Below, in pieces: positions 1 to 773 of a stretch of 773 nt of DNA (its first letter is position 1; every line of letters begins with the position of its first letter). The DNA is from Escherichia coli (GTDB taxonomy: Bacteria > Pseudomonadota > Gammaproteobacteria > Enterobacterales > Enterobacteriaceae): NCBI RefSeq assembly GCF_003334405.1, contig NZ_QOWM01000053.1. The stretch is one strand, 5' to 3'. The notes below the pieces were generated by a model. It did not search any database. It had not been told where the DNA came from and was given only the letters and a program-made list of their open reading frames with translations. Position numbers and translations under genes: made by a program.

Positions 1-773
1 CACATGCTGAGGGTGCTGTCCGGGTGCAGCTCCGGGTCGGGCAGGCGGTTACCTGCCGGGTCTGTGGCATACGGGATGCGGATATCCAGATTCGCTGCGG
101 TGGTGTGAACGCCGGTCAGCCTGCCGGTGGTGCTGTAGCTGTAACTCCGGGTCTGGCGCGGGCTGCTGATGCGGATGAGTTCGCCGTTGTCGTTCCAGGT
201 GTAATCGCGGTCAGACAGCAGGCTGTTCAGGTGCTGGCTCTGTAACTGCCCGGCAGGGGTATAAGCGGTGGTGAGTTCATAACGGCCGAAGCTGCGCAGC
301 GTTTCCCGGTGCAGGCGGTCGCGGGTGTACTCCACCAGCGGTGTGTCGCCGAGTTTCATGCCTGCCAGGTAACCGCTGCCGTAGGTCAGCCATTCCACGG
401 CGGGCAGGCTGTCCGGTATACAGCGGTTCGCCAGCCCCTGCGCGTTGTACGCATGTCTGGTCTCATGCTGCCAGAGCAGTGCTTCCGTCTGCGGGTGATG
501 CACCGTCTGACGCTCACCGGTCAGCCGGCCTTTCTCATCATACCTGTAATGCACCGCCACCCGGTGCCCTTCGCTGATATGGCTGATGTCTGTCAGCCAG
601 CCACGTTCGTCATACTGCCACCGCTCTGCGGTTTCACCCTTCACGGTGCGGTGCGTGAGGCGGTCTGCTTCGTCATAGTGCCAGTGGGTGACCAGACCCT
701 CATCCTCGCTGCGGATAAGTTTGCCGGTCAGGTCGTGGTGATAACGCTGTGTGCGGCCGTCAAAGCCGGTTTC
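1..773 (-). CDS. rhs: Rhs-family YD-repeat protein, internal core fragment (partial at both ends; polymorphic toxin scaffold)
   Basis: Seen in sequence: reverse-complement frame with first full codon at 773..771 (GAA) and last full codon at 5..3 (ATG) is open for 257 codons with no stop; positions 2..1 are the first two bases of the next codon. Translation contains canonical YD-repeat motifs (RTQRYHHDLTGKL, THWHYDEADRLT, ERWQYDERGWLT, VHYRYDEKGRLT, RDYTWNDNGELI, RSYSYSTTGRLT) at about 21-24 residue spacing. Leucine codons are dominated by CTG and third positions are G/C-rich, as in enterobacterial genes. Established knowledge (from memory, not a database search): the stretch GFDGRTQRYH.DLTGKL ... 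WQYD..GWLTDISH.SEGHRVAVHY.YD.KGRLTGE ... LLWQHET.HAYN.QGLANR..PDSLP.VEWLTYGSGYLAGMKLG.TPLVEYTRDRLHRET.RSFG ... TYTPAGQLQSQHLNSL ... IRIPYATDPAGNRLPDPELHPDSTL is the conserved core of E. coli-type Rhs proteins. The specific paralog (rhsA/B/C/D/E or other) cannot be assigned from this fragment. Confidence 0.93.

Follow-up and report, generated by a model that had tools for sequence, protein, structure and literature searches.

Reading Frame and Coding Signal

The question raised by this locus is whether a stretch of Escherichia coli DNA whose list of open reading frames (ORFs) holds only seven entries of 20–78 aa is part of a larger gene, and if so, of which one. The stretch, referred to here as the window, comprises 773 nt of assembly GCF_003334405.1 (contig NZ_QOWM01000053.1), was analysed over its full length and has a G+C content of 62.6%. 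Six-frame translation found frame 0 of the minus strand (window 3–773, with bases 1–2 left over) to be open across 257 codons with no stops, while the remaining five frames contain 1, 8, 9, 12 and 14 stops. At the base composition of the window, the chance of one given 257-codon frame being open is approximately 9e-4. As at least one of the six frames stayed open in only 0.44% of mononucleotide shuffles, the open frame exceeds what chance would provide. The G+C contents at codon positions 1, 2 and 3 of this frame (64/47/77%) are the pattern of a genuine GC-rich coding frame.

The first-pass annotation had claimed one uninterrupted 257-codon frame on the minus strand, belonging to a gene to which the ORF track was blind. 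Re-translation bears out the former claim, and the composition of the ORF list the latter: the list omits ORFs running off either end of the window, which is why the 257-codon frame is missing from it. Both the start and the stop of the gene lie outside the window.

Little else was detected in the 773 nt. A repeat search returned only short two-copy families of 14–19 nt and weak inverted repeats, and the short repeats were dismissed as separate features, being expected from the reiterated codons of YD repeats. No promoter-like site emerged when the window was scanned for promoters and terminators, and the one terminator-like site compares with an expectation of 0.5, a count from which nothing follows. 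An Rfam scan at a permissive E-value gave only a sub-threshold match to a C/D-box snoRNA (16.3 bits, gathering score 40; E 0.079), which was treated as chance.

Assignment to the rhsA/rhsB Core

Megablast of the minus strand of the window against 5426 complete E. coli genomes produced matches in 3901 of them, at a median of 5 places per genome; the best match was at least 99% identical in 1146 records. The top matches listed are all 100% identical over 773/773 nt and lie under genes annotated as rhsA, rhsB or "RHS element core protein", with "RHS element protein RhsA" and "rhs element protein RhsB" among the annotations of the 100% matches listed. A full-length, high-identity match to Rhs core genes on the minus strand, which had been anticipated from the translation, was thereby obtained at the DNA level. 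The accompanying description of the locus as accessory is fair, with the qualification that the element is a common one, as the number of matching genomes and of places per genome indicates.

In one MG1655 record, the window corresponds to nt 1999–2771 (codons 667–923) of both rhsA (4134 nt; locus yibF-rhsA-yibA) and rhsB (4236 nt; locus nikR-rhsB-yhhH), with 100% identity to each. The two genes are separated by 42 substitutions in their first 3741 nt and then continue into unrelated toxin tips. The window is contained in a perfect rhsA/rhsB identity block of 1,214 nt (nt 1894–3107; in rhsA, positions 8896–10109 of locus L001), and because this block is identical in both genes, the window is not assignable to rhsA or rhsB alone. 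That copies about 140 kb apart are perfectly identical over such a length suggests that gene conversion is ongoing. Upstream, a second identical block of 1,811 nt (nt 82–1892) is parted from the 1,214 nt block by a single substitution at nt 1893.

The products of the other K-12 genes, RhsC, RhsD and RhsE, belong to the same family and share the core region, but their sequences have diverged from that of the window. Identity to the window is 95.7% for rhsC (33 mismatches), 77.9% for rhsD and 78.8% for the rhsE fragment, values that rule out these three K-12 genes as the source copy. K-12 RhsA (WP_000015300.1) and RhsB (WP_000015298.1), members of the RhsABCF subfamily (clade I), share all 773 nt with the window at the same offset and differ from each other only outside it. 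The window is almost certainly an internal segment (codons 667–923) of a clade-I E. coli Rhs core gene, indistinguishable in sequence from K-12 rhsA/rhsB.

Repeat Content and Architecture of the Complete Proteins

The 257 aa translation matches the NCBIfam model NF041261 (RHS_core) with 535 bits (E 3.3e-160), collinear with model positions 675–937 of 1261. This model, "RHS element core protein", is an equivalog with a curated cut-off of 2000 bits, below which the window fragment falls because it represents only one fifth of the protein. Three RHS/YD repeat units are recognized in the translation by Pfam PF05593, all with E < 1e-3 and all encoded on the minus strand: residues 14–46 (window 636–734; i-E 1.1e-4), residues 54–88 (window 510–614; i-E 8.9e-4) and residues 193–226 (window 96–197; i-E 6.6e-5). 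The last of them is also detected by TIGR01643 (YD_repeat_2x; residues 193–227), with 30.3 bits against a cut-off of 15.8.

The first-pass annotation had recognized a YD-repeat/Rhs-like protein in the translation and named four models by which this could be verified. NCBIfam, Pfam and a PDB sequence search agree with it, as does the 100% DNA match to annotated rhsA/rhsB, and of the models named, PF05593 and TIGR01643 both match within the window. For PF03527 and TIGR03696, the outcome depends on where one looks: neither matches the window translation, and both are found in the full genes that carry the window sequence. Their absence from the window is expected, since the domain occupies codons 1143–1247, downstream of codons 667–923.

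The complete RhsA and RhsB proteins reach 2647 and 2644 bits on NF041261, above the cut-off of 2000, and are also matched by TIGR03696 and TIGR01643. Within residues 1–1200 of RhsA, Pfam identifies DUF6531, ten RHS_repeat (PF05593) matches at E ≤ 0.001 and PF03527. The Rhs-associated core (TIGR03696/PF03527) lies at residues 1143–1247 in rhsA and rhsB, outside the window, and the motif PxxxxDPxGL occurs at residue 1238 in both proteins. The tips differ: that of RhsA is Ntox34 (E 2.5e-43) and that of RhsB is DUF4329 (Pfam). The full genes are thus ordered as an N-terminal DUF6531/plug-like region, YD repeats, the Rhs-associated core up to PxxxxDPxGL, an AT-rich variable tip and a small immunity gene.

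Base composition follows the same division, with G+C contents of 61.6% and 61.7% in the two cores and 40.2% and 36.6% in the tips, against 53% in the flanking chromosome. In the published description of E. coli Rhs elements (Hill; Jackson et al. 2009, PMC2935791), a conserved core of high G+C content is followed by a divergent C-terminal extension rich in AT, and the GC-rich core and AT-rich tip of rhsA and rhsB are this classical Rhs element architecture. Immunity-type genes lie directly downstream, yibA after rhsA and yhhH after rhsB; the regions following the two rhs genes contain these immunity genes, N-terminally truncated orphan tips and ISAs1-family elements. According to the account of Vlazny and Hill (1995) given in PMC3150448, the C-terminus of RhsA blocks the recovery of cells from stationary phase and is neutralised by yibA.

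Two strains differ from K-12 in the region behind the core. In the rhsA locus of strain FORC 064 (L007 6005–10705), the rhs gene is annotated as frameshifted and is followed directly by yibG, encoding a sel1-repeat protein, while the yibA and the first orphan fragment of K-12 are missing. The tip that K-12 carries as a silent orphan appears to be the one attached to rhs in FORC 064, and the locus would be a case of between-strain tip exchange. In the rhsB locus of strain 300709 (L006 10210–11370), IS1A is inserted just past the start of the yhhH-type gene overlapping the end of rhsB, leaving a 66 nt stub and a separately annotated ORF of the YbbC/YhhH family. Provided that yhhH confers immunity to RhsB, strain 300709 may have an intact rhsB toxin gene beside a disrupted immunity gene.

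Predicted Cocoon and Toxin Release

In a PDB sequence search, residues 1–246 of the translation align to residues 577–825 of the Tse5 shell (chain 8cp6_B; E 1.1e-20). Full-length RhsA matches Tse5 with E 6.9e-128, and several other solved Rhs effectors were also matched. The open frame, the exact DNA match, the NF041261 alignment and the Tse5 alignment together mark window positions 3–773 (minus strand) as codons 667–923 of an rhsA/rhsB-type Rhs core gene, encoding a predicted part of the YD-repeat shell.

In Rhs proteins of solved structure, the YD repeats form a closed beta-spiral cocoon, and an aspartyl autoprotease cuts the toxin at PxxxxDPxGL, the toxin remaining enclosed until delivery (PMC8765631). 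By analogy, the YD repeats of the E. coli protein, those encoded in the window included, would wind into a closed beta-sheet cocoon around the C-terminal toxin, which would be cut at PxxxxDPxGL by the aspartyl autoprotease and freed upon delivery into a neighbouring cell. Judged by homology, the window would encode the cocoon wall of a polymorphic toxin rather than the toxin itself.

The known systems resemble the E. coli proteins to different degrees. Tse5 of Pseudomonas aeruginosa (8cp6) and RhsA of P. protegens (cryo-EM, PMC8765631) have the YD cocoon, the C-terminal autoprotease and the enclosed toxin as family features, but are distant homologues with other N-terminal modules and other toxins. 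The BC components of Tc toxins (YenC2, TccC2) and the metazoan teneurins have the Rhs-associated core in common with RhsA and match it at residues of about 1147–1247; they give no significant match to the window region, their shells being too divergent for sequence search, and they differ in delivery and biology.

Genomic Context and the Type VI Connection

A link to type VI secretion through PAAR and VgrG had also been proposed for the locus. It holds as a statement about the family. Five genomes, among them the non-K-12 strains 300709, FORC 064 and H9Ecoli, were inspected for 6–9 kb to either side of the 100%-identical rhsA and rhsB copies, and neither vgrG nor hcp nor any other type VI gene was found there. 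The flanks in the five genomes consist only of housekeeping genes (yibF/selAB, nikABCDER), immunity genes, orphan tips and IS elements. Laboratory K-12 is not known to have a type VI apparatus; a literature search with the phrase used returned no explicit statement that K-12 is without a type VI system. For Tse5 and P. protegens RhsA, dependence on type VI secretion has been shown by experiment; none of the rhsA and rhsB loci inspected in E. coli, by contrast, has type VI genes next to it. Since no type VI gene stands beside rhsA or rhsB, type VI delivery of their products would follow from the family as a whole, and we infer it at that level.

The N-terminus was considered in the same connection. 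Pfam listed no PAAR family at E ≤ 10 in residues 1–1200 of RhsA, and residues 2–29 resemble weakly the last repeat only of PAAR proteins (4jiv_D, E 0.65; 9rce_c, E 0.023). For residues 48–145, the alignment is to the beginning of Tse5 chain 8cp6_B as deposited (E 3.6e-16). RhsA and RhsB possess about 45 residues before the DUF6531 region (RhsA residues 1–45; L001 7003–7140), with the literal letters PAAR at positions 5–8. Long rhs genes of EHEC carry a PAAR domain (PMC7216683).

Recombination and the Identical Core

The name "rearrangement hot spot" goes back to recA-dependent unequal crossing-over between rhsA and rhsB, which duplicates the glyS region (PMC2935791; PMC3150448). The window lies within the perfect rhsA/rhsB identity that would enable such an exchange, as the 1,214 nt block implies. 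In the model of PMC2935791, the same identical core block doubles as the homology used for displacement of C-terminal tips.

A trace compatible with this model is present in K-12. Window positions 1–77, the gene-distal end, are 100% identical to the very start of an N-terminally truncated orphan Rhs fragment located after rhsC-ybfB (L003 9149–9225) and annotated as a pseudo-CDS (L003 9134–10654). The 77 nt match represents the rhsA/rhsB version and not the 95.7%-identical rhsC core. This is consistent with a tip brought in together with a stretch of core of its own, as C-terminal displacement would have it.

Alternative Interpretations

The copy from which the window derives could be other than an intact toxin gene: a frameshifted pseudogene, a long orphan core fragment or an rhsA/rhsB recombinant junction. 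The FORC 064 rhs gene annotated as frameshifted contains the same 773 nt, several N-terminally truncated core fragments are present at the K-12 rhs loci, and window 1–77 (plus-strand coordinates) perfectly matches the first bases of the orphan fragment that follows rhsC. We nevertheless regard a decayed or rearranged source as unlikely, as the frame is intact throughout the window, most of the listed records with 100% identity annotate rhsA or rhsB as intact, and the K-12 orphan fragments start downstream of most of the window and overlap it at high identity by no more than 77 nt. A still smaller chance, one that we would call slim, attaches to a source genome with an rhsA/rhsB recombination across the identical block, which classically duplicates or deletes the interval of about 140 kb, or with a copy bearing an undescribed tip. 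Either, if true, would be a fresh instance of well-described Rhs behaviour.

A further possibility concerns function, namely that the protein serves mainly another role, such as assembly of the group 2 capsule export complex or host colonisation, with the tip being secondary in strains lacking type VI secretion. Reports as summarised in PMC2935791 describe cross-linking of RhsA to KpsD, reduced group 2 capsule in an rhsA mutant and poor colonisation of calves by an rhsA mutant of O26:H-, and neither rhsA nor rhsB is flanked by type VI genes. Against this stand the toxin and immunity architecture (Ntox34 and DUF4329 tips, the PxxxxDPxGL cleavage motif and downstream immunity genes), the finding related in PMC3150448 that the RhsA tip is toxic and that yibA neutralises it, and the close structural homologues, which are type VI effectors; a mainly non-toxin role is accordingly improbable, although the window itself is silent on this choice. 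Even less credible, to the point of being negligible, is a genuine overlapping gene on the plus strand. Frame 2 of that strand has a single stop (TAA at 243–245) in 257 codons, and the ORF list contains plus-strand ORFs at 24–245 (73 aa) and 341–577 (78 aa). Long antisense frames are, however, expected opposite a gene with a G+C content of 77% at third codon positions, and the near-open frame is the usual shadow of such a gene and no evidence for an overlapping one; the window moreover has no promoter-like site and no RNA family above threshold, and the plus strand is without annotation in any record examined.

Significance

The reading of the window as an interior piece of an rhsA/rhsB-type core gene is an ordinary finding, the identification being already known. 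The rhs core is a textbook element that belongs to one of E. coli's best-known accessory gene families and is annotated in thousands of genomes, and it was reportedly described in E. coli K-12 in 1984. The result accordingly carries little weight for discovery, and its value is practical only. It is a caution that ORF lists demanding both a start and a stop will overlook any gene that fills a short window. Since a genome contains two perfect copies of the stretch and several diverged ones, a read or window derived from it has no unique placement, and these copies are a known substrate of large chromosomal rearrangements in E. coli.
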